IMG/VR virus record: IMGVR_UViG_2645727743_000020
Span: 1 to 37,319 of that record
Origin: a virus
Taxonomy: Duplodnaviria > Heunggongvirae > Uroviricota > Caudoviricetes
Reading direction: 5' to 3' (one strand)
DNA: 37,319 nucleotides
The notes beneath the pieces are model-generated. The model was not told where the DNA came from. It did not search any database and saw nothing but the letters and a program-made list of their open reading frames with translations. The position numbers were made by a program, and so were the translations under genes. Positions 22,450-33,993 of the stretch are shown here, in pieces (position 1 is the first letter of the stretch; each line of letters opens with the position of its first letter).

Positions 22450-24201
22450 ATGATTCAGGACGCTTTTGTGCGCCAGCGTGCGCGGCAACTTTACTGGCAG
22501 GGTTATCCGCCCGCAGAAATATCACGTCTGATGGGAATAAACCCGAACACGATTTATGCGTGGAAAAAACGCGACCAGTGGGATGAAACGCCACCCGTGC
22601 AGCGTGTCACGCAGTCCATCGATGCGCGCCTCATCCAGCTTACTGAAAAACAGAATAAAACAGGCGGTGACTTTAAGGAAATAGACCTGCTGACCCGGCA
22701 GCTTAAAAAGCTGCATGATGGCCAGCCGGATGTGATGGCCGCAGGAAAGAAAGGCCGGGCGAAAAAACTCAAAAATCATTTCACGCCGGAACAGATTTCC
22801 GCACTGCGGGAAAAAATCATCAGCAGGCTGGAGTGGCATCAGCGGGGCTGGTTTGACTCCCTGACCCTTTGCAGGGAAGCCGGGATACGTAACAGGATGA
22901 TCCTGAAATCCCGACAGATTGGGGCGACCTGGTATTTTGCACAGGAAGCTCTGCTGATGGCGCTGCGTGACGATGTGGCGCAACCTTACCAGCGTAACCA
23001 GATTTTTTTGTCTGCGTCGCGTCGTCAGGCGTTCCAGTTTAAAAGCATTATTCAGAAGGCCGCGGCTGAAGTTGATGTGGAGCTGAAAGGGGGCGATAAA
23101 ATCATCCTCTCCAACGGCGCAGAGCTGCATTTTCTCGGCACTTCTGCTGCGTCGGCACAGTCCTATACGGGCAATTTTTATTTTGATGAATTTTTCTGGG
23201 TCAGTCGCTTTGCTGAACTGCGCAAGGTGGCTGGCGCTATGGCAACCCTCAGCGGACTGCGGCGCACCTACTTCTCCACGCCATCCACCGAAACGCACGA
23301 GGCATACGCCTACTGGAACGGCGACCGCTGGAACGAGAAAAAGGCCTCGCATAAACGCCAGCGTTTTTCTGTGGACTGGAAAACGCTGCATAACGGGCTT
23401 ATCTGCCCTGACCGGACGTGGCGGCAAATTGTCACGCTGGAAGATGTGGTTAATCACGGCTGGAAACACACCGATATCGACGAAATTCGTGATGAAAACA
23501 CCGAAGACGAGTTCCTCAATCTCTATATGTGTGAGTTTGTCCGCGAAGGGGAATCGGCATTTAACCTGAATATCCTGATTGGCTGCGGTGTTGACGGATA
23601 CGACGACTGGAAAGACTGGAAACCTTTTGCTCCCCGCCCGATGGGGAATCGTCCGGTATGGATTGGGTATGACGCAAACGGCAGCAGTGGCAACGGCGAC
23701 AGCGGCGCTGTGTCCGTGGTGGTTCCTCCGGCTGTTCCTGGTGGCCGTTTTCGAACGGTGGAGACGAGACGCGTTCAGGGGCTGGAGTTTGAAGAACAGG
23801 CCAGAGTCATTGAAGAGTTCACGTATCGCTACAACGTGGAACACATCGGCATTGATGTGACGGGCGGGAACGGGGAGGCTGTTTATCAGATAGTGAAACG
23901 GTTTTTCCCTGCTGCTATTCCGTACACCTTCACGCTGTCATCAAAACGGTCGCTGGTACTGAAAATGCTGCAAATAATGCGTGCCGGGCGGTGGGAATAC
24001 GATCGCGCCGAACGCGAGCTGGTCGCGGCCTTTAACGCCGTGCGTAAGGTGAAAACACCGGGCGGCTTTATCACTTACGAAACGGACCGCGCGAGGGGGA
24101 TCAGCCACGGCGACCTTGCGTGGGCAACCATGCTTGCTGTCATTAACGAACCGATTGGCGGCGAAGGAGAAAACGAGCGTTTCACGGTTATGGAGTTCTG
24201 A
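22450..24201 (+). CDS. P: Terminase large (ATPase) subunit P
   Basis: 583 aa (P2 P about 590 aa); divergent from O; stop overlaps Q start. Confidence 0.9.
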   Translation: MIQDAFVRQRARQLYWQGYPPAEISRLMGINPNTIYAWKKRDQWDETPPVQRVTQSIDARLIQLTEKQNKTGGDFKEIDLLTRQLKKLHDGQPDVMAAGKKGRAKKLKNHFTPEQISALREKIISRLEWHQRGWFDSLTLCREAGIRNRMILKSRQIGATWYFAQEALLMALRDDVAQPYQRNQIFLSASRRQAFQFKSIIQKAAAEVDVELKGGDKIILSNGAELHFLGTSAASAQSYTGNFYFDEFFWVSRFAELRKVAGAMATLSGLRRTYFSTPSTETHEAYAYWNGDRWNEKKASHKRQRFSVDWKTLHNGLICPDRTWRQIVTLEDVVNHGWKHTDIDEIRDENTEDEFLNLYMCEFVREGESAFNLNILIGCGVDGYDDWKDWKPFAPRPMGNRPVWIGYDANGSSGNGDSGAVSVVVPPAVPGGRFRTVETRRVQGLEFEEQARVIEEFTYRYNVEHIGIDVTGGNGEAVYQIVKRFFPAAIPYTFTLSSKRSLVLKMLQIMRAGRWEYDRAERELVAAFNAVRKVKTPGGFITYETDRARGISHGDLAWATMLAVINEPIGGEGENERFTVMEF

Positions 24202-25247
24202 TGAGCAGAAAAAATAAAAAAGTGCGCATGAGTTCACGCATTGATCTCGCTGATGCGCTCAGGAAAGAATCGTCGCTCAGTGCATTCACATTTGATGGTC
24301 CTTATCGCCTGACCGGGCATGACCTGCTGGACAATATGTACTGTGCTGATAACGGGCGGTGGTATGAAACCCCGGTGGACTGGTACGGTCTGGCAAGAGC
24401 TGCCCGGCAAACGTCCTGGCATCAGTCTGCGCTTTACTTTAAGCGCAATGTATTACTCGGTTGCTACATCCCGCACCCGCTGCTTTCCCGGCAGGATTTC
24501 TCGGCGCTGGCGCTGGACTGGTTTGTGTTCGGTAACGCATTCCTTGAGCTTCGAAGCAATATGCTCGGCGAACCGCTTAAATTACGGCACGCCCTGGCAA
24601 AATACATGCGACGCGGTAGCGATCTTGAATCATGGTGGTATGTGCAGGATGGCAAGGATGCGTTCCAGTTTCGCCCTGGCAAAGTGTGCCACCTGATGAA
24701 TCCTGACATTAACCAGGAAATCTACGGCATGCCGGAATATCTCGGCGCATTACTCTCGGCCAGCCTGTCTCATTCGGCGGACATGTTCAGAAAACTGTAT
24801 TACGACAACGGATCCCACGCCGGGTGCATCATCTACATCGGTGCAGCGCAGGTAAACCGCGAAAGCATGGACTCCCTGAAAGAAACGCTACAGGGTGCAC
24901 GTGGTGGCGGTGCGTTTAAAAACGTGCTCATTCATGCGCCCAACGGGGGCAAAGAGGGGGTGCAAATTTTGCCGTTCCAGCAGATCACCGCAAAGGATGA
25001 GTTCATGAATGTTAAGGCGGCATCCCGTGATGATGTGCTGGCTGCGCACCGCGTTCCGCCGCAACTGATGGGGGCGATGCCGGGTGAAAAAAGTGCGTTT
25101 GGTGATGTGGAGAAGGCCGCGCGGGTTTACGCAATTAACGAGCTGATGCCCGTCATGGAGGCCATGAAGCACATCAATGACTGGCTTGGCGAAGAGGTGA
25201 TCCGCTTTAACCCTTACGCACTGTTAGATACCCAGCCCACATCCTGA
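24201..25247 (+). CDS. Q: Portal protein Q
   Basis: 348 aa (P2 Q about 344 aa); TGATG coupling to P; next to the cos region. Confidence 0.9.
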   Translation: MSRKNKKVRMSSRIDLADALRKESSLSAFTFDGPYRLTGHDLLDNMYCADNGRWYETPVDWYGLARAARQTSWHQSALYFKRNVLLGCYIPHPLLSRQDFSALALDWFVFGNAFLELRSNMLGEPLKLRHALAKYMRRGSDLESWWYVQDGKDAFQFRPGKVCHLMNPDINQEIYGMPEYLGALLSASLSHSADMFRKLYYDNGSHAGCIIYIGAAQVNRESMDSLKETLQGARGGGAFKNVLIHAPNGGKEGVQILPFQQITAKDEFMNVKAASRDDVLAAHRVPPQLMGAMPGEKSAFGDVEKAARVYAINELMPVMEAMKHINDWLGEEVIRFNPYALLDTQPTS

Positions 25248-25272
25248 CACGCTTCGCTTGTCTGCTGCTTCG

Positions 25273-25299
25273 CCGGGGCATAAAAAATTTATGCCCCGG
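25273..25299 (+). terminator. Stem-loop 26 nt downstream of Q (possible terminator, no clean U-tract)
   Basis: CCGGGGCATAAA..TTTATGCCCCGG perfect 12-bp inverted repeat. Confidence 0.35.
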
Positions 25300-25723
25300 C
25301 TCTCCAGCTCCTGTATCAATCAGATAATTTCACGACGCTTTTCTGCTTATTGCCATCATCGGCGGTCAGACTCTTACGCAATCCCACCGCGTTGACTGCA
25401 TGTTCTTCGCCGCCTCAGTGCGATTTTGACGGCCTTACCTTTCACCCCATCAAATCAGAATCCCTCACGTATTTTTCACGCTCAGCGTGAGAAATACAGC
25501 CATTCTGTTGTGTCTCTGCGACATCGTTCAGGGAATGCTATTTACCCCCTGAAACGCGGGCTGTTCCCCCGTCACCTGCGCGCAGAAAAAGCGCGTTTTT
25601 TTGTGCACGCACGGATCCCTGACGGATCCAGCCGCCACGCGGGCCAGAAGGGCAAAAATTCGTTCAAAAAAATTGTGCAAATTTGTGCACTATCGTGCAT
25701 GTAAATTCATAAAAAAATTACAG

Positions 25724-25745
25724 AAAAAAGGCCGCTTTCGCGGCC
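25724..25745 (-). terminator. Rho-independent terminator downstream of the AAA+/S8 operon
   Basis: GGCCGC-TTTC-GCGGCC stem-loop followed on the minus strand by a six-U tract, 8 nt after the subtilase stop. Confidence 0.6.
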
Positions 25746-25752
25746 ATAAAAA

Positions 25753-27957
25753 TTACGTGTCGAGAGAAATTTGTGTGCGCAGTTGAATAGGATTCAGAAT
25801 TGTATATCGCTGGCGAATAACATTATATAAATCAAAGTCTTTTACCCTTACGCTTATTACCATCGCATATTGCATATCAGGGGCTGAAACTCCCTTAACA
25901 TGGCGCGAAGAATCTCGGGCATGATACCGTATATCAAAAACTGGATCGCTTAATAATGTATCAGCACTGAACTTTTTGCTTCTGTGCAAACAAGTTTCCC
26001 ACTTATGACCTTCACTCCTACACTCCCTTTCAGTCTTATACTGGCTTTTTTGACCAAAGAAATCATCTGTATCGGTATCGTCAAGGCCGAATCTTGGGCG
26101 GAAAGTTACCTGCATACCGGCCCTTGTATAGTTTACTGAATGTTCAGGATCTACTGGGGTTTGAATGCATAAAGTAGCGGTAAGCTCAAATGCTTCGTCA
26201 AAGGGAACATCAGGGAATGGGATCGGTGCCCTTAAATATTTATTTTTTGCTAATGAACCATAGTAAATTACTGTAGCAGTATCATTTGGACAATCGATTA
26301 AAACGTTAGGATCCTCACTAAACCGTCCCCAACCGATATGTTCACGCGAATATTTTCTTGATGTTTCAGCATGATGAACAAGCAACGCTTTCAATGCAAT
26401 GGTGTTCAATGGAGTTCCTGATAGAGCCGCAACTCCAGCGGCCGTTCTCAATGCTAATGGAGAGGCATAACTGGTTCCTTGAACTCCAACTATAGAACCA
26501 AGCAGAGGGTTGTAAGTGTAAAAAGGCTCGTCGTCGCTTCCACCAAAAATAACACCATCAGGTTTAACGAATCCGGGGCTTCTGCCTGGCCCAATACAGC
26601 TATATGGTGCCCGCCCCCATTTTTCACCGCTACGATCAGCAGCACCAATCGCTAGCGCGTTTACCATATCGGAAGGAGGTTGTATTCTCGCTGCATCACC
26701 GTCCTCATTGCCATCATTCCCAACAGCAACAGTAAGTAATATCCCATGCTTAGCACAGATTTGGTCTAAAACAGCAGTCCATACATGAACCTCATCATCA
26801 CCAATTGGAAGATGAGGACCAATACTTAGATTAGCGAACTTATAGTCACCACTATCAAGAACGGACTGTATTTTCTTAAGGACATCAAATAAATCCCAAT
26901 TGCCATTGTCACCTGATGTCGGTGAAAGAACTCTATAATGATCTACATTCATAAACGGTCTTTTAAAAGAAGGTGCATTTTCCTCGACACGTCCGAATAA
27001 GAAAGTGGATGTCACTTCATTACCGTGCTGCAATAATAATCCGCTTGTTTCTTTGGTGTCTGGATACACGTATTCCGTAACCCAATTACTCAAGTCAGCT
27101 GTCCCCAAGCCACCATCAAAAATGGCAATACGTTCGGATTCAAGAACAGCTTTAGAATTAGGGAGCTCTGGTGTAACTATATTAGATAACTTTCTGACAA
27201 TGTTCGGCTGAGTACACCTGAGAGACGGCATCGGCCGCACAACGCGGATTAATGAAAAATCGAGTGTTTTTTTCATATCTTCAGGTCGCGCGTGTGCAAC
27301 GATGAAAGTCAGCCCACCAACTTGGATTCTACTTTTGTAATCAACAGAGACATCATATTGTGCCGCATAGCTAATATAGGCTTTAACGATATCATCGTCT
27401 TCAACCCCAGCATGAAGAACCACTTCAAATTTTATCAAATCACTTTTCGCATGCTCAAAATTGCGTGCTCTCTCTTTTCCTTCAAAAAAGCTAACACTTT
27501 CAATTTCGATCAAATCCTTTTGTACGCCCTTCGGAGCTGTAGGGGAATTTAAAATTTCCTTAAATCTTATAACGGCATCATCATCACCGCTAACAAACAG
27601 TTGCGCCGTTACTAAGTCCTTATTCTGATCGCACTGACGTGCCGCTTTCCGTGGGCGAATGATTACCTGACGGCTACCGACATCCCGTAAACCTGTCGCT
27701 CTAAGCAATCCTTCCGGAAAGTAGCTTTTACCCAAAAACGCTGGGTGTAAAGTTAAATTGAATACACTCTCCCCCCTTGGCTTAGCCGCATCATCCAAAC
27801 TGCGAAAGCGTGAGAGTAAAGTATCAATCTCTGGGTTTAAATGCTCCCTTACTTCTTCAAGAGTATAGGGATAGCGCTTACCATCCCTTCCTTTAGGCAA
27901 AGGTTCCTTTTTTGTCAGAACATGACCGTTACCTAAAAGTAAGTTCCTTTCCATCAT
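25753..27957 (-). CDS. S8-family subtilisin-like serine protease with a roughly 270-aa N-terminal domain of unknown function (IetS-like candidate)
   Basis: Catalytic triad motifs in order: IAIFDGG (Asp), HGNEVTS (His), GTSYASPLA (Ser, the GTS-x-A-x-P signature); 734 aa; start overlaps the ATPase stop by 4 nt. Confidence 0.85.
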   Translation of the reverse strand: MMERNLLLGNGHVLTKKEPLPKGRDGKRYPYTLEEVREHLNPEIDTLLSRFRSLDDAAKPRGESVFNLTLHPAFLGKSYFPEGLLRATGLRDVGSRQVIIRPRKAARQCDQNKDLVTAQLFVSGDDDAVIRFKEILNSPTAPKGVQKDLIEIESVSFFEGKERARNFEHAKSDLIKFEVVLHAGVEDDDIVKAYISYAAQYDVSVDYKSRIQVGGLTFIVAHARPEDMKKTLDFSLIRVVRPMPSLRCTQPNIVRKLSNIVTPELPNSKAVLESERIAIFDGGLGTADLSNWVTEYVYPDTKETSGLLLQHGNEVTSTFLFGRVEENAPSFKRPFMNVDHYRVLSPTSGDNGNWDLFDVLKKIQSVLDSGDYKFANLSIGPHLPIGDDEVHVWTAVLDQICAKHGILLTVAVGNDGNEDGDAARIQPPSDMVNALAIGAADRSGEKWGRAPYSCIGPGRSPGFVKPDGVIFGGSDDEPFYTYNPLLGSIVGVQGTSYASPLALRTAAGVAALSGTPLNTIALKALLVHHAETSRKYSREHIGWGRFSEDPNVLIDCPNDTATVIYYGSLAKNKYLRAPIPFPDVPFDEAFELTATLCIQTPVDPEHSVNYTRAGMQVTFRPRFGLDDTDTDDFFGQKSQYKTERECRSEGHKWETCLHRSKKFSADTLLSDPVFDIRYHARDSSRHVKGVSAPDMQYAMVISVRVKDFDLYNVIRQRYTILNPIQLRTQISLDT

Positions 27958-29036
27958 TTAATCCCCCACTTTTGTAATTTATTCGCGATTGTTGGATGTG
28001 AAACACCAACTAATTCAGCTATCTTCCTATTTGAAAAACCGTCAAAATGATATTTAATTATATTGAGATCATTATCGCTAAACTCATCCAATGAAACCCT
28101 CTCCGTAATTACGGCTTCTATTAATGAGCTTTCAAATGGAATATTTCTAAGTACCTCATTCTTTTTGGAGAAATTCAAAATACGGTTAATGATGGCAAAG
28201 GACATGCCATCTAATAATGGTGCAAGTTTTTTAGATAGTTCAGGTTCAATATTATGATTGACTAAATATCTATCTATCAGTTCTACTGATGGCATATTAA
28301 ATTTAAGGATGTGCTCAAATCGACGCCAAACAGCCGGATCTAAGATATCAGGGTGATTAGTCGCAGCAACAAGAAGCGAGGTCGCTGGCCACTCATCTAT
28401 GGTCTGTAGGAGTACAGTAACTAAACGTTTTAATTCTCCAACGTCCCTGTCATCATCACGTCTTTTTGCAACAGCATCAAATTCATCAAGCAAAAGGACA
28501 CATGGTTTCTCTTTGGCATAATCCATAACGGATTTAATATTATTACCTGTTTTTCCCAAAAGAGAACTCATTACAGATGAGAGATCCAATGTTAAAAGAG
28601 GTAAATTTAACTTTGCAGCAAGCCAATGTGCGGACATTGTTTTGCCTACGCCTGGCGGGCCAGAAAGTAAAACCGTCTTCACAGGTTCAAGACCAGCTTT
28701 GAACAAAGAAACCGCATTCTCTCTTTCGTTAACAATTGACTCCAGCTTCTTTGAGATATCCGTATTCCATACAGGTTCTTCAACAATTGCGTTGACAGAT
28801 GTTTCCTGCAAAAGGTTTCGTCTGGAGTCTCCATCCACAGGCATAGGAGCCTTACTAGATGCCCCACGTAATACTGTTCCCTCAGCAACTAACGAAGCCA
28901 GCTTAGAAGCTAAAGCCTCATCATTTTTACGGATGTTGTTAATCATCTTTCTGCATAGGAGTGTAAATGCATTTGCGTTGCCTTTGATGCCTTGCTCGAT
29001 GAGTTTGAAAAGTTCATCCTCCCTCACGTTTACCAT
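27954..29036 (-). CDS. AAA+ ATPase with C-terminal LuxR/sigma-70 region-4-like HTH (IetA-like candidate)
   Basis: Walker A GPPGVGKT, Walker B VLLLDEFD, sensor/arginine-finger ATNHPDILDPAVWRRF; C-terminal NRKIAELVGVSHPTIANKLQKWGI; ATG 29036 with GGGGG SD. Confidence 0.85.
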   Translation of the reverse strand: MVNVREDELFKLIEQGIKGNANAFTLLCRKMINNIRKNDEALASKLASLVAEGTVLRGASSKAPMPVDGDSRRNLLQETSVNAIVEEPVWNTDISKKLESIVNERENAVSLFKAGLEPVKTVLLSGPPGVGKTMSAHWLAAKLNLPLLTLDLSSVMSSLLGKTGNNIKSVMDYAKEKPCVLLLDEFDAVAKRRDDDRDVGELKRLVTVLLQTIDEWPATSLLVAATNHPDILDPAVWRRFEHILKFNMPSVELIDRYLVNHNIEPELSKKLAPLLDGMSFAIINRILNFSKKNEVLRNIPFESSLIEAVITERVSLDEFSDNDLNIIKYHFDGFSNRKIAELVGVSHPTIANKLQKWGIK

Positions 29037-29414
29037 AAAACCCCCAATAAAACATCAGCTTGTGTAAGCTGGTAACTACATTAATGAAAATCATTGACTA
29101 ATGTTACCACTCTTGCTGGCGTAATTCAAAGAGTATCCTCACTTTTTTACTGTATGGATAATCAGCATAAAATCTATCCAGTTGGGTTACTCGAACATAC
29201 TGTCAATACTTGTTTCCAACGATTGATCAGTTCTACAGTTTTATCTCCTTCACTTGTGTTGGCAGCATGCTTATTCCTGAACCAGCTCGATTACTTGGCC
29301 ATTTGAGAAAGATGTGTAGATCTTCTGATGGTTTGTATTGGAACGGGGTGCATAGTGATTTGCACCCCGTTCTTTATGTTATGGGATTGGTGGCAGGGCG
29401 AATACGCCCTGATG

Positions 29415-29726
29415 TTATTCAGGAAATAACGCCCGGATATTTCCGGCCATCTGACTGGTTATCTGTGCGGTTGATACTGGCTGTGACGCGGGGCGTTCTG
29501 TCTTGGTTTGTGTCACTGATAACACCTCATCATCAGCCCATGCAGCCAGTCGGTAAGCCTCTGCCGGATTCATTTTCAGAAGTGCCAGCCCGGCCAGAAA
29601 AGCCACGCGTTGGCCGCTTTTGCGGGCTTCTGGTGTAAGGCTGTCCAGCCAGGCGCATGCTTCTCCTTCGTTCTTGACGGCGGTGGGCTTCAGATAGAAA
29701 CTTATCCGTCTGGTTGGAGTCGTCAT
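29415..29726 (-). CDS. parR: ParR-like centromere-binding adaptor
   Basis: Start ATG 29726, 4 nt after the parM stop with AAGGAG SD; MTTPTRRISFYLKP...LDSLTPEARKSGQRVAFLAGLAL...NIRALFPE parallels R1 ParR (RRTIAFKLNP...LDSIP..ERS..RAALTAGLAL...LRSLFPKE, recalled from memory). Confidence 0.7.
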   Translation of the reverse strand: MTTPTRRISFYLKPTAVKNEGEACAWLDSLTPEARKSGQRVAFLAGLALLKMNPAEAYRLAAWADDEVLSVTQTKTERPASQPVSTAQITSQMAGNIRALFPE

Positions 29727-29730
29727 TGGT

Positions 29731-30690
29731 TTACTCCTTGTCCATTGCGTACAGCCCATTAACCAGAGCAAACTGTGGCACCCCGTCCGCGATGAAAGTC
29801 GCATTAACTCCGCAGGCTTCGCGGATAGCGGGTGCCACAATCTCCGCCCCTCCACCGACAACCATCACCCGCCCGTAACCCGAAAAAACCGCCAGCGCGC
29901 GGATCACGCGTTGTTTCAGTGTTTCTTCCTTTTCACGAATAACCGCCATCAGGCTGGCGTAATGCGCGTCATTGTGGATGTGCTGGCGCAGCCAGGCTTC
30001 ATCATGGCGATGTTCGATAATGGTATTGGCGATGTGGTGACTGGTGCGCATACCGTTAGTGGCCATCACCGACAGTACGGCATCGGCCATCAGAGAAACG
30101 CCTACGTGTGGATCGCAAAACACCTGGCTGATACCTGCCAGTTGCCCCTGAACCTTTGCCACATCCAGCGTGGTTCCGCCCAAATCCACAATCAGCAGGG
30201 ATTCAAACGGACTCATGTCAGCCAGTGCCTTAAAGCCAGCCGGAATGGATTCAGGCATAACCCGCACGTTACGGATAGTGAATGCCTCACCGTTCTGGTA
30301 CTCCACCGGGCGCATAACGTTTGCTTTTTTGCGGTTGATGTTGGCCATGTCCGGCTGGGCGTTAGTGTCGAAATATTCGCTCAGTGGCAGGGTGACAACC
30401 ACATCCACTTCCTGTGGCGTGATGCCTGATTTGACCAGCGCGTGATGAATGGCAATGACATTCACATCGCTGTACTGGTATTGCGTGTCGGTCGTCTGGA
30501 CAAAGCGATCGCTGACCGGATCAAAACCATAGCGCACGCCATCAAGCATGTAGTTCGCAGGCTGCGAGCCACCGAACGGTGCAGACCATTCCGACTTGAA
30601 GCTGTTCGGGCTGATGGCGTTGCGGCGTTCGCCGTTTTCAGTCCATGCCAGCTTGATGTTGGTGGAGCCGTCGTCGATACAAATTTTCAT
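29731..30690 (-). CDS. parM: ParM/StbA-family actin-like segregation ATPase
   Basis: 319 aa; IDDGSTNIKL, ISPNSF, YSDVNV, HHAL, KANVMRPVE, VMPESIPAG, LLIVDLGGTTLD, VVGGGAE, LVNGLY all align with R1 ParM (recalled from memory). Confidence 0.9.
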   Translation of the reverse strand: MKICIDDGSTNIKLAWTENGERRNAISPNSFKSEWSAPFGGSQPANYMLDGVRYGFDPVSDRFVQTTDTQYQYSDVNVIAIHHALVKSGITPQEVDVVVTLPLSEYFDTNAQPDMANINRKKANVMRPVEYQNGEAFTIRNVRVMPESIPAGFKALADMSPFESLLIVDLGGTTLDVAKVQGQLAGISQVFCDPHVGVSLMADAVLSVMATNGMRTSHHIANTIIEHRHDEAWLRQHIHNDAHYASLMAVIREKEETLKQRVIRALAVFSGYGRVMVVGGGAEIVAPAIREACGVNATFIADGVPQFALVNGLYAMDKE

Positions 30691-30725
30691 GTCGATTTTC
30701 CTTATGTTGGTTAATTAACCGTTTA

Positions 30726-30816
30726 CGGGATTTTTAAATCCCGCTTTCGCCTGTTTTGTGCGCGCTTCATATATCGCGGCGCGTTTTTTGCTCATTTGCG
30801 GGATTTGTGAATCCCG
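30726..30816. repeat. Two related palindromes upstream of parM (parC-like centromere/operator candidates)
   Basis: CGGGATTTTTAAATCCCG (30726..30743) and CGGGATTTGTGAATCCCG (30799..30816), each followed by a similar T-rich stretch, within 130 bp of the parM start and overlapping the A 3' end. Confidence 0.45.
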
Positions 30817-33607
30817 TTTCTGTCTGTTTTTTGTTGCCACTGGTCAGGCCACCCCGCAGCAGGTCTGCTTTGCGGCGGGCGCGTTCAGTGGTTTCACTGA
30901 TTCTCTGTGCGTGCTCTGCGTCACGAATGGCGCGCAGCATGTCAGAAAGCACGGTAACGGGTGTTTTCATGGTGTTCTGGTCCTGCTGAAGTGTGGATGC
31001 CAGGCGTGCGGCGGCTTCGGGGTCTGATGCCCCGAGCTGTGCCAGATAGCTGGCGACCGGGTTATGGCGGATCTCCGTGCTGCTTACGCCGTGATTACGG
31101 CTCAGGCGCTGCCAGAGCTGCGTGATTCGGCTGTCCGGGCGGGTATCCGGTTTGCGTACAATTTCAAATCCCTGCGGTGCAATGATGCTGCCGTCAACGT
31201 ACAGGCTGCCGCCCCGTAACAGGTGCTGCATCTGCTGTTCACCGATATGCAGGCCGAGAGATTCGGCAGACTCCCGCCATTCTTTAGCGAGTAATTCGTG
31301 GTTATCAGGCAAAGGCTGTGGCTGTTTGCGGCTCTGTGTCCAGTTCTGCATTTCATCACTGCTGTTTTTGGCCTGTTTGTCACGCAGCGAACGCATCAGT
31401 GCCCGGCGTTCGTGCCGTTTCAGTGAGCGCATCCATTCATTCACTTCAATGCCGTCAGGGAGCTGCGGCCACGGTGCTGGCCGTTCTTCCGGCTGTTCTG
31501 TCCCGTTGTTGTCCGTTTCCTGTACACGGGGACAGTTATTGCCACGAGTCCAAGGGGCGGCAGGGCCGCCCTGAAGGTCAAAACCATTTTCGTGGGCGTT
31601 GTCTTCCGGTTCTGGTTTACGTCTTACCAGCTTCCAGTTATCCGGATGCGTGCACACACGGGAGGATTCCCCGATGAGTGGTGACCAGATTCCGTAAATC
31701 TGTACGCTCTGTTCGCCGTAATCGTTCAGCTCATCTGCGAGGTCGTAGGCGGTGCGAATCAGGTAGTCCTTGCGTGGAACAAGCACGCCACCCTGTTTTT
31801 CAATGTAGGTGGCAAAACATCCGGCATCAGCGGCAGCGAGTACCGCATCCATTGCGTCATCCTTCAGCCGTTGCGGGCCTTCCGGGTTGCGTGCCATCTG
31901 GCTGGCAAGGCGGCGCAGTTCACGCCACACCTGACGGGAGGGGATACCAAAGAACTGGAACTGGCGGACCCGGTGAAGGCGCGCCCAGCCGATGGCGCGT
32001 TCCACGCTCTCGGCCATTGATTTTCCGGTTTCGTGGTCAACGCGTGGCTTGCCCGTTTTCGGGTCGATGCCATCCACGGCGCGGCTGTCCAGGTTTTTTC
32101 CGATGTAGGTCGCGATATAGCTGGTTGGTGTGCCTTTTGAGCCGTCGACATACTCCACCTTAAAGCGCGGAGTAATATCATTGCCCAGCTCGTGGCGGTC
32201 TTCCTGAATGGCAATATCGCGGGTGATGGCCACGATGCTGTCGATTTCTTCCGGATGAGCAAAGACCATCATATGCCAGTGCACGGTGCCGTCATGGTGA
32301 GGCTCCACCGTGCGGATGCCATACCAGCGCAGACCGTCGCGGTTCAGTTTTTTGCGGACTGCCGCAAAAAACGTGTTAACCAGGTAATCGCTGGAGTCGC
32401 GCATGGTGGCCCCGTTCCATTTGGGATTCGGATGACCGTTCTCTGTTGTGGCGTGGTATTTTGACGGGCAGGTGACAGTCAGAAACACCGCTCTGTCGCC
32501 ACGGGCTTCGGCCAGAAGTTCCAGCCCCCTCATGGTGGCCATCATTTCTGCCTTACGGTGAACCGGGTTACTTACTCCCGCGTAATACACTGTCTCGAGA
32601 TCAATCGTGAACCCGTCTTCGTTTTCCAGCATGAAACTTTTCAGGAAATCGCGTGTTTTCTCGCGCTGCGCGCGAAACTCGCTTAATGCGTCCTGACTCA
32701 GATAGGGCGATGTTTTTCTGGAAACCAGACAGGCGGCGCGGAGTTGTTCTTCCCGCCACTCGCAACGTAACAGCCACAGTTTGCGTTTCCACCATTCCGC
32801 ACAGGTCAGGCGAAGGATTGCGCCCGGCAGCAGCTCCGTGTCCGGTTCGTTCCTCCGGTCTTTGTCTGTTGTCAGTGCGTCATAATGTGGAGGCATGGCG
32901 TGCAGGTGTAACGCCATGCGGGCCAGCATCTGATACGCCTTCAGCGTTACATCCATGGTCAGCTCGCCATCAGTCGCGCCAAAGCTATCGCAGAGTTTTT
33001 CGAAGGTGCTGCTGAACATCGCCGCCGTCATGGTGGCCAGCGTCTGTATCTGGTGTTTGTTGAGCTGCGGCAGGTAAAGCAAATCGTCCAGGCGTTCGCG
33101 TCCGGTAAGGGAGCGATAACCCGGTGTCAGCCAGCGGTGATCGGTGCGTTCCAGGCGTTCGAATATTTTGCGCAGGTTTCCGCGCGCGTAGCGTTCAGCC
33201 TGCCAGCTCTTTTTGCCTTTCTGACGATCGGATTCCTGTTTTTTGCGCAGGAAAGAGAGGTGGCGGCTCAGAGGTTCACGCAGATAAACGGGAAGCACTT
33301 TCAGTGTGGCAAAAGCACGGGCCACCGGGTCTTGTTCTGTTGCCTGACGCTTGCTGATGATGCTTTGTGCCAGCTTTTCACGCTGTCCGGCTTCCTCAAG
33401 GGATGCCATGAGTTTTTTACCCACGGTGGATTGTGCGAAAAAGGCTTCCTCCTTCGCTTCCTGTTCTTCCAGGGCCTTTTTGTCTGCCTCAAGGTAGTAA
33501 CGGATGGCGCGTTGCAGGTCGGTTTCAGTTTCCTGCCTGTGCTCCGTAAATCTGGCCGGATCAATGGCTGGTCGTGGTTCATTCCAGCTCCATGCAAACT
33601 CACTCAT
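30767..33607 (-). CDS. A: Replication initiation protein A (rolling-circle nickase family)
   Basis: 946 aa from ATG 33607 (ATGA overlap with the upstream ORF); longer than P2 gpA (about 761 aa). Confidence 0.85.
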   Translation of the reverse strand: MSEFAWSWNEPRPAIDPARFTEHRQETETDLQRAIRYYLEADKKALEEQEAKEEAFFAQSTVGKKLMASLEEAGQREKLAQSIISKRQATEQDPVARAFATLKVLPVYLREPLSRHLSFLRKKQESDRQKGKKSWQAERYARGNLRKIFERLERTDHRWLTPGYRSLTGRERLDDLLYLPQLNKHQIQTLATMTAAMFSSTFEKLCDSFGATDGELTMDVTLKAYQMLARMALHLHAMPPHYDALTTDKDRRNEPDTELLPGAILRLTCAEWWKRKLWLLRCEWREEQLRAACLVSRKTSPYLSQDALSEFRAQREKTRDFLKSFMLENEDGFTIDLETVYYAGVSNPVHRKAEMMATMRGLELLAEARGDRAVFLTVTCPSKYHATTENGHPNPKWNGATMRDSSDYLVNTFFAAVRKKLNRDGLRWYGIRTVEPHHDGTVHWHMMVFAHPEEIDSIVAITRDIAIQEDRHELGNDITPRFKVEYVDGSKGTPTSYIATYIGKNLDSRAVDGIDPKTGKPRVDHETGKSMAESVERAIGWARLHRVRQFQFFGIPSRQVWRELRRLASQMARNPEGPQRLKDDAMDAVLAAADAGCFATYIEKQGGVLVPRKDYLIRTAYDLADELNDYGEQSVQIYGIWSPLIGESSRVCTHPDNWKLVRRKPEPEDNAHENGFDLQGGPAAPWTRGNNCPRVQETDNNGTEQPEERPAPWPQLPDGIEVNEWMRSLKRHERRALMRSLRDKQAKNSSDEMQNWTQSRKQPQPLPDNHELLAKEWRESAESLGLHIGEQQMQHLLRGGSLYVDGSIIAPQGFEIVRKPDTRPDSRITQLWQRLSRNHGVSSTEIRHNPVASYLAQLGASDPEAAARLASTLQQDQNTMKTPVTVLSDMLRAIRDAEHAQRISETTERARRKADLLRGGLTSGNKKQTETGFTNPANEQKTRRDI

Positions 33608-33993
33608 GGCTGGTATCCCGTCACGCGCTGCCACTCCTGCAAGAAGATGGTGGAAAGGCGGTTAAATTCAGCGGTGTATTCACTCAGCGAGACACACCCG
33701 CCAGCAGTGCGATGCGCCAGCATTGCCGCAAATACGGAGGCCGGGGAGTCGTAATACGCCAGCAGTGATTCGCCGTGCGGTGTCAGGCAGTGCAACGCCA
33801 GTCCGTGTGGTGTGAAGTCCACGCGGTAGCAGTCGTCTACTGTGAAATAAAGGGTATCCACATTCTCCGGTTTTGTGGTGCGTGCTCTGTTGTCACGACC
33901 ACGAATGTAGAGATCAAATAATCCCCGAAGAATGGGAGCCAGACGGGTGTCCTGTGTGCGCACCCATCTTGTGAAGTCATGAGCGTCAATCAT
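33604..33993 (-). CDS. Hypothetical early protein (129 aa) translationally coupled to A
   Basis: ATG 33993; stop overlaps A start; no recognisable motif. Confidence 0.55.
   Translation of the reverse strand: MIDAHDFTRWVRTQDTRLAPILRGLFDLYIRGRDNRARTTKPENVDTLYFTVDDCYRVDFTPHGLALHCLTPHGESLLAYYDSPASVFAAMLAHRTAGGCVSLSEYTAEFNRLSTIFLQEWQRVTGYQP

Follow-up and report, generated by a model that had tools for sequence, protein, structure and literature searches.

Why should two GC-rich hairpins without a U-tract on the sense strand stand between the end of a phage partition operon and the cargo genes beside it? The DNA in question, a 37,319-nt virus record (here called the window, meaning the whole stretch analysed), is a P88-like prophage (Xuanwuvirus, Peduoviridae, P2 family) that runs in reverse relative to the P2 map. 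The original prediction had placed two inverted repeats downstream of parR and both were recovered exactly, hairpin 1 as AACGGGGTGCA-N8-TGCACCCCGTT at 29342-29371 and hairpin 2 as CAGGGCG-AATA-CGCCCTG. The explanation that we consider probable is that hairpin 1 is the orphaned terminator of a lost DUF4760 gene and hairpin 2 a backbone boundary stem-loop of the partition operon. The features on which the argument draws are collected in Table 1.

Table 1. Features of the window that bear on the two hairpins (coordinates are window positions)
Feature	Position	Strand	Description
Terminase and portal Q	22450-25247	+	
Imported block	25555..29297	-	ietS, ietA, upstream region and gpA remnant; 95.8% identical to Enterobacter phage phiT5282H (blastn)
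ietS	25753-27957	-	S8 peptidase; PADLOC IetS, E = 6.6e-41
ietA	27954-29036	-	AAA ATPase; PADLOC IetA, E = 3.6e-89
gpA remnant, Novemvirus type	29174..29297	-	Frameshifted last ~43 codons; ..SNRAGSGISMLPTQVKEIK / DKTVELINRWKQVLTVCSSNPTG* matches the phiT5282H gpA C-terminus
DUF4760 remnant	29297..29319	+	Last 7 codons and TAG stop (GGCCATTTGAGAAAGATGTGTAG); homology to Shae_phiSM and no107 begins at 29297
Hairpin 1	29340..29373	+	12-bp stem (plus one G.T pair), 8-nt loop; read as orphaned intrinsic terminator of the lost DUF4760 gene
T-rich tail of hairpin 1	29373..29385	+	TTTATGTTATGGG; from T-score and alignment with P88-type and P884B11-type junctions
Hairpin 2	29394..29411	.	7-bp stem, 4-nt loop; read as conserved boundary stem-loop of the P88-like backbone
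parR	29415..29726	-	R1 StbB/ParR type; Pfam PF10784 Plasmid_stab_B, E = 7e-24; last gene of the gpA-parM-parR string
parM	29731-30690	-	R1 StbA type; StbA_N and ParM C-terminal domains
Candidate parC repeats	30722-30760, 30795-30833		Two 39-nt direct repeats, 79% identical, 73 bp apart, each with CGGGATTTnnAAATCCCG
Replication endonuclease gpA	30767-33634	-	

Genomic context of the hairpins

A published defence hotspot of P2-like phages is located beside cos, between gpA and gpQ (Rousset et al. 2022, PMC9122126), and hairpins 1 and 2 mark its parR-side, that is its replication/partition-side, border. The hotspot is filled here by ietA and ietS, which are situated in an AT-rich block after the portal gene and whose products also matched the NCBIfam IteA/IteS models, below the curated cut-offs. 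A term search of PMC9122126 and PMC13586616 returned no mention of terminators or hairpins, a literature search on the P2 early-operon terminator and on IetAS gave nothing usable, and a presumed P2 cos sequence had no match in the window.

Ordinary terminators are in use elsewhere in the hotspot, as evidenced by two canonical examples with U-tracts, one on the + strand at 25578-25596, in a region common to all relatives, and one on the - strand at 25745-25730, directly past the ietS stop. The former probably ends late P-Q transcription. Three other structures were observed in the window. A perfect, GC-rich palindrome of 12-13 bp (GCCGGGGCATAAA-AAA-TTTATGCCCCGGC, 25270-25300) lies about 25 nt past the portal (Q) stop and has a U-tract on neither strand, making it a second location for a U-tract-less hairpin, at the opposite edge of the cos/hotspot region. 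Within the gpA coding sequence there is an 11-bp perfect inverted repeat (TTTTTTGCGGA-CTGC-TCCGCAAAAAA, 32347-32372). On the - strand at 29056-29071, a terminator-like hairpin (CAGCTTACACAAGCTG followed by ATGTTTTATT) stands directly ahead of the ietA ribosome-binding site and may represent an attenuator or leader structure of the defence operon.

The window has three sites with a perfect inverted repeat of 11 bp or longer where 0.03 are expected, and hairpin 1 is clearly non-random. Repeats resembling hairpin 2 (7 bp with at least six G/C) occur at five places against 1.5 expected, so that this hairpin is only mildly above chance within the window and its reality depends on conservation in relatives. 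The 141-nt region is far more stably folded than its dinucleotide shuffles, with z = -6.9 for the - strand and -4.1 for the + strand. A terminator scan flagged both hairpins as terminator-like sites on the + strand.

Hairpin 1 as the probable terminator of a lost gene

The arms of hairpin 1 extend to 12 Watson-Crick pairs (29341-29372) with an additional G.T pair between 29340 and 29373, at approximately -23 kcal/mol, and include eight G-C pairs; GC content, stem length and loop agree with the stem of an intrinsic terminator (GC-rich, 5-14 bp, short loop). The two flanks of this stem differ markedly. The original prediction that the parR-sense (-) strand carries no U-run was borne out, with one T in the first 8 nt after each of the two stems. 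On the + strand the tail of hairpin 1 is TTTATGTTAT, in which six of the first eight nucleotides are T and the T-score of 3.85 ranks in the top 0.7% of window positions, a U-tract that is present though interrupted. A discriminant of the d'Aubenton-Carafa 1990 type (modern energy parameters used) was approximately +23 on the + strand versus -22 on the - strand. In other P2-like phages, homologous DUF4760 genes are followed at 15-20 nt by canonical terminators, for which the value was +24. A short transcript that stops at hairpin 1 could start from a + strand promoter-like match at 29146-29173, although such matches are no commoner than chance would give (1 found, 1.3 expected).

Across 103 ParR-bearing loci and phage records, hairpin 1 is confined to three junction types, the other ParR loci being without it. 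The first is the window type with IetAS, present in 31 of 5426 complete E. coli genomes including EPEC E2348/69, and the second is that of E. coli 23CRST027, with an unrelated cargo. The third comprises Citrobacter phage Shae_phiSM, E. coli no107 and the viral contigs L096 and L102, in all of which an intact + strand DUF4760 gene ('memP') is convergent to parR and stops approximately 20 nt before the hairpin. Through these intact relatives hairpin 1 is placed shortly after a stop codon on its own strand. The DUF4760 gene is reduced to 23 nt in the window type versus about 60 nt in 23CRST027 with its different cargo, and none of the ParR loci or phage records compared had hairpin 1 without a DUF4760 3' end or remnant. 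A pattern scan of IMG/VR for hairpin 1 returned ten stretches, nine of which belong to this prophage family. The tenth (L103), a canonical terminator from a GC-rich contig, is unrelated and was taken to be a chance match.

All 31 window-type copies in E. coli are at least 99% identical, so that the retention of hairpin 1 among them is uninformative on selection. Its sole polymorphism, C29351T in E2348/69, L014 and L015, retains a U.G pair in + strand RNA and produces an A.C mismatch in - strand RNA. Taken with the arrangement in relatives, these data indicate that hairpin 1 is, as judged by sequence comparison, a probable + strand intrinsic terminator whose DUF4760 gene was lost. The claim that neither hairpin is a canonical intrinsic terminator thus stands for the parMR transcript and fails on the opposite strand, where hairpin 1 is terminator-like and belongs to the lost gene. 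The orphan may still be active, for example in stopping stray + strand transcripts antisense to parR, parM and gpA.

The tail of hairpin 1 is also the reverse complement of a conserved A-rich ribosome-binding-site box, AACATAAA(C/G)AAGG, that lies ahead of the first - strand cargo gene in P88 and P884B11, and the right arm together with the tail (CCCCGTTCTTTATGTT, 29365-29380) aligns with the reverse complement of a conserved Shine-Dalgarno box, AACATAAACAAGG(G/A)G, ahead of the same gene. An older junction, or microhomology, may lie inside hairpin 1.

Import of the IetAS cassette

Enterobacter phage phiT5282H (Novemvirus) has the same IetAS pair in the same hotspot, and its homology to the 3.7-kb imported block of the window continues into the 3' end of its gpA gene. 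The flanking portal genes are only 69% identical and phiT5282H is without parMR. The 95.8% identity of the block, together with the gpA tail that it includes, argues for a Novemvirus-like donor, from which the IetAS cassette was acquired complete with its upstream region and a piece of gpA. The left join of the cassette lies within 25555-25700, in sequence common to all relatives, and the right join is at 29297, inside the resident DUF4760 gene. Small intergenic pseudogenes at these hotspots have been described as remnants of intense recombination (NAR 2026, PMC13586616), and the gpA and DUF4760 fragments of the window match that description.

Comparison with relatives indicates that a DUF4760 gene on the + strand was once convergent to parR, with hairpin 1 as its probable Rho-independent terminator. 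The cassette then recombined in from a Novemvirus-like relative within the P2 family, donor gpA tail included, and replaced all of the DUF4760 gene except its last 23 nt, leaving the terminator orphaned beside the junction. The suggestion that the hairpins are a recombination scar at the cargo junction therefore applies to the neighbourhood of hairpin 1, where the 23-nt DUF4760 remnant abuts a frameshifted gpA fragment that came with IetAS, and does not describe hairpin 1 itself, which reads as an ordinary terminator of the opposite strand.

It is also conceivable that the palindromes are DNA sites that drive cassette exchange, either as hairpin or cruciform recombination hot points or as short linker homologies. 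The homology between cargo classes often stops at, or a few nucleotides from, the outer arm of hairpin 2 (in the L072, L054 and L085 types, in class C and in the window type), and a second short conserved box (AACATAAACAAGG) is located just ahead of the variable genes. Past the parR stop of contig L078 (IMGVR_UViG_2826200407_000009), the P88-class (class-C) loop, CATC, is joined to the P884B11-class (class-A) spacer and first gene, a chimeric junction that suggests recombination within or beside hairpin 2. The breakpoints are scattered rather than fixed, though, the junctions with relatives being at 29297, approximately 29365, 29394 and 29415, and hairpin 1 is present in one lineage only. The join in the window at 29297, which is 43 nt from hairpin 1, resembles illegitimate or microhomology recombination of two gene fragments, and selection for a backbone element accounts for the overall pattern more simply, so that we consider a role in exchange improbable. 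The more specific proposal, that hairpin 2 with the adjacent ribosome-binding-site box is a conserved linker for defence-cassette swaps among P2-like phages, is one to which we give correspondingly little credence; the linker could act by short-homology recombination or by template switching promoted by a GC-rich hairpin. An attC-like site-specific recombination site, with one fixed join, was considered separately and rejected, given the scattered junctions and a window join that lies 43 nt from hairpin 1 and connects two gene fragments.

Conservation of hairpin 2

Hairpin 2, at approximately -12 kcal/mol, begins 3 nt downstream of the parR TAA (29417-29415) in the window and is kept in about 85 of 103 ParR loci, 3-8 nt past the parR stop, in 35 distinct junction sequences and next to at least six different downstream contents. 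The original prediction had suggested asking whether the hairpins are conserved at cargo boundaries in related prophages, and for hairpin 2 the answer is positive. The core CAGGGCG/CGCCCTG is near-invariant and the stem is frequently 9-10 bp, with loops that vary (TATT, CATC, TATC, AGTT and AACT, and AAA in the L074 junction type). The closing pair has undergone a double change from G-C to A-U in L052 and L054, and the stem has a G.U pair in L009. The hairpin is broken in a few singletons, and one of its arms is missing from the Shae_phiSM type, where hairpin 1 is present.

In an alignment of hairpin 2, 93% of cells are paired, and the one true compensatory change is that of L052/L054, among closely related sequences; a second double change that had been counted is an artefact of a one-column misalignment of L074. 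The covariation score of 0.098, again for closely related sequences, compares with 0.071 for shuffled alignments and was reached by 4 of 500 shuffles. Formal covariation support is thus weak because the sequences are close, and a DNA palindrome under selection would look alike. An Rfam scan of 28900-29800 assigned no family, with only a chance-level lncRNA match (9.9 bits against a gathering score of 80).

Matches in a plasmid collection bear on where this element came from. In true plasmids the match is limited to parM, at approximately 66% nucleotide identity, and includes neither the 3' end of parR nor either hairpin, so that hairpin 2 is not traceable to a plasmid par module. One E. coli record filed as a plasmid, NZ_CP148288.1, matches parMR and hairpin 2 at 96.6%. 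With 34,461 bp it has the size of a P88-like phage, and it may be such a phage, either maintained as a circle outside the chromosome or assembled as one, in keeping with the presence of parMR. A ParR search in one-genome-per-species contigs yielded only three loci.

Two further observations concern the 3' end of parR. On the parR-sense (-) strand, a small hairpin in the last codons (29433-29446, CCGGAAATATCCGG followed by GCGTTATTTC) received a terminator-like flag. A direct repeat (ACGCCCTGATGTT / ACGCCCGGATATT) permits alternative pairing with the 3' arm of hairpin 2, a possibility restricted to the window type. An alternative - strand fold between GGGCG in the parR 3' end and this arm was rejected, as its inner helix requires a 5-nt deletion that only the window type has, and P88 does not conserve this helix.

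Probable transcription through hairpin 2

None of the 35 junction variants has a U-tract after hairpin 2 on the sense strand. On the + strand the window tail is ATGTTATTCA, with T at five of the first eight nucleotides, and the terminator-like flag was raised for P88 as well as for the window. Across variants this antisense tail, ATGTT(GTG)TTATTC, passes a simple scan with marginal values (T = 2.4-2.6, discriminant -9 to +2). It overlaps the parR stop and last codons and may be T-rich only because this sequence is coding. Four loci have a convergent gene of 198 aa ahead of hairpin 2, with its stop at a distance of 17 nt in L028, L071 and L072 and of about 40 nt in L085. At 40-50 nt past the hairpin, the P88-type and P884B11-type junctions have the start of a co-oriented gene, which has a Shine-Dalgarno sequence of its own, and in P88 the stretch from parR to this gene gave no promoter-like site. 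With a co-oriented gene so close and no sense-strand U-tract, hairpin 2 most likely passes much sense transcription, which probably reads through it at least in part. Among ParR lineages at 62-71% identity the position after parR is occupied by canonical sense-strand terminators, by a hairpin between convergent genes or by nothing, indicating that there is no family-wide rule.

These observations weigh on a reading in which both hairpins act on the parR-sense transcript, as U-tract-less terminators or barriers to 3' exonucleases, and so end and stabilise the gpA-parM-parR message and shield potentially toxic ietAS from induced early transcription. Both stems form equally well in - strand RNA and sit exactly between the parR stop and a cargo that has its own co-imported upstream region, and the divergent ParR lineages L157, L151 and L174 do have a sense-strand terminator at this position. 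Against this, the - strand U-tract is absent from both hairpins in all variants, read-through is implied in most relatives by the nearby co-oriented gene, and hairpin 1 is tied to the DUF4760 gene instead of parR, with a strand-asymmetric tail and, in E2348/69, a variant that mismatches in - strand RNA. We regard this reading as rather unlikely; a purely sense-strand role is possible for hairpin 2 and is a poor fit for hairpin 1.

The preferred explanation assigns hairpin 2 to the conserved phage backbone, as the operon-end stem-loop of the partition module. It would form where the parMR message ends, a point that, if P2 is a guide, is also the end of the early operon, and sense transcription would partly pass. 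Mechanistically it would terminate transcription weakly or in both directions, or else protect the 3' end: for sense transcripts it may serve as a protective or intercistronic stem-loop, and for antisense transcription that comes in from the hotspot as a modest terminator. The RNA-stability element contained in the original prediction accordingly survives as a possible role for hairpin 2.

Candidate partition sites

The same prediction had offered a protein-binding site, and one or both palindromes might in principle be bound by ParR, as centromere or operator, or by another phage regulator. Conserved arms, a variable spacer and a symmetric double change would suit a palindrome that binds a dimer as well as they suit an RNA stem. 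In R1-type systems parC consists of repeats arrayed upstream of parM. Each hairpin motif is single-copy in the window and forms no such array, and a search for the hairpin 2 motif with up to two mismatches found only its own site. Furthermore, hairpin 2 is half-deleted in Shae_phiSM and no107 despite intact parMR genes, and hairpin 1 is absent from most phages that have parMR. A better candidate is provided by the two 39-nt repeats (Table 1), which straddle the gpA stop just upstream of parM and each contain the palindrome CGGGATTTnnAAATCCCG; they are likely to be the putative parC centromere or ParR operator of the prophage partition system. Binding of a protein at either hairpin is thus very improbable, and this part of the original prediction was not upheld. 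Dispersed repeats of the REP/BIME kind were also rejected, as the hairpins were present in only 34 of 5426 E. coli genomes, at a single site in each and always in this prophage context.

Significance

The direct importance of the locus is small, an odd pair of U-tract-less hairpins being explained by ordinary module shuffling, and both hairpins are ordinary in that they belong to known kinds of element, an orphaned terminator and a conserved operon-end stem-loop. What the locus offers is a base-resolved case of IetAS moving between two genera of P2-like phages, in which the cassette dragged a piece of donor gpA along and truncated a resident accessory gene; the swap fits, and adds detail to, the published rapid swapping of cassettes at this hotspot. 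For annotation, the lesson is to score hairpins at hotspot borders on both strands and to compare relatives before proposing a function. The linker reading, if true, would provide a concrete and testable mechanism for rapid swapping at the gpA–gpQ hotspot.

Comparison with known systems

The locus is that of the P2 gpA–gpQ hotspot, extending from gpA/parMR to portal Q by the cos region and holding a recognised defence system, IetAS, as cargo; it differs in that the P88-like flank is parR instead of gpA. The partition genes resemble parMRC of R1 in having ParM and ParR of the R1 type, whereas the hairpins follow parR and occur once each, the parC-like repeats being upstream of parM.

Hairpin 1 is similar to Rho-independent terminators located between convergent genes, with a GC-rich stem that in relatives follows a stop codon by about 20 nt, a tail rich in T on the DUF4760 strand and canonical terminators at the same place after homologous DUF4760 genes; unlike these, in the window its gene is gone and its U-tract is interrupted. 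Hairpin 2 of the L072 type likewise lies between two convergent stop codons, but is followed by no U-tract on the sense strand and only by a marginal one on the antisense strand. Stem-loops that act as intercistronic or 3' stabilisers include the REP hairpins in malEFG and the intercistronic hairpins of Rhodobacter puf. Hairpin 2 is like such stabilisers in being stable, U-tract-less and directly past a stop codon, with a co-oriented gene next in most relatives, and differs from the REP family in being a single-copy element that is not repeated.
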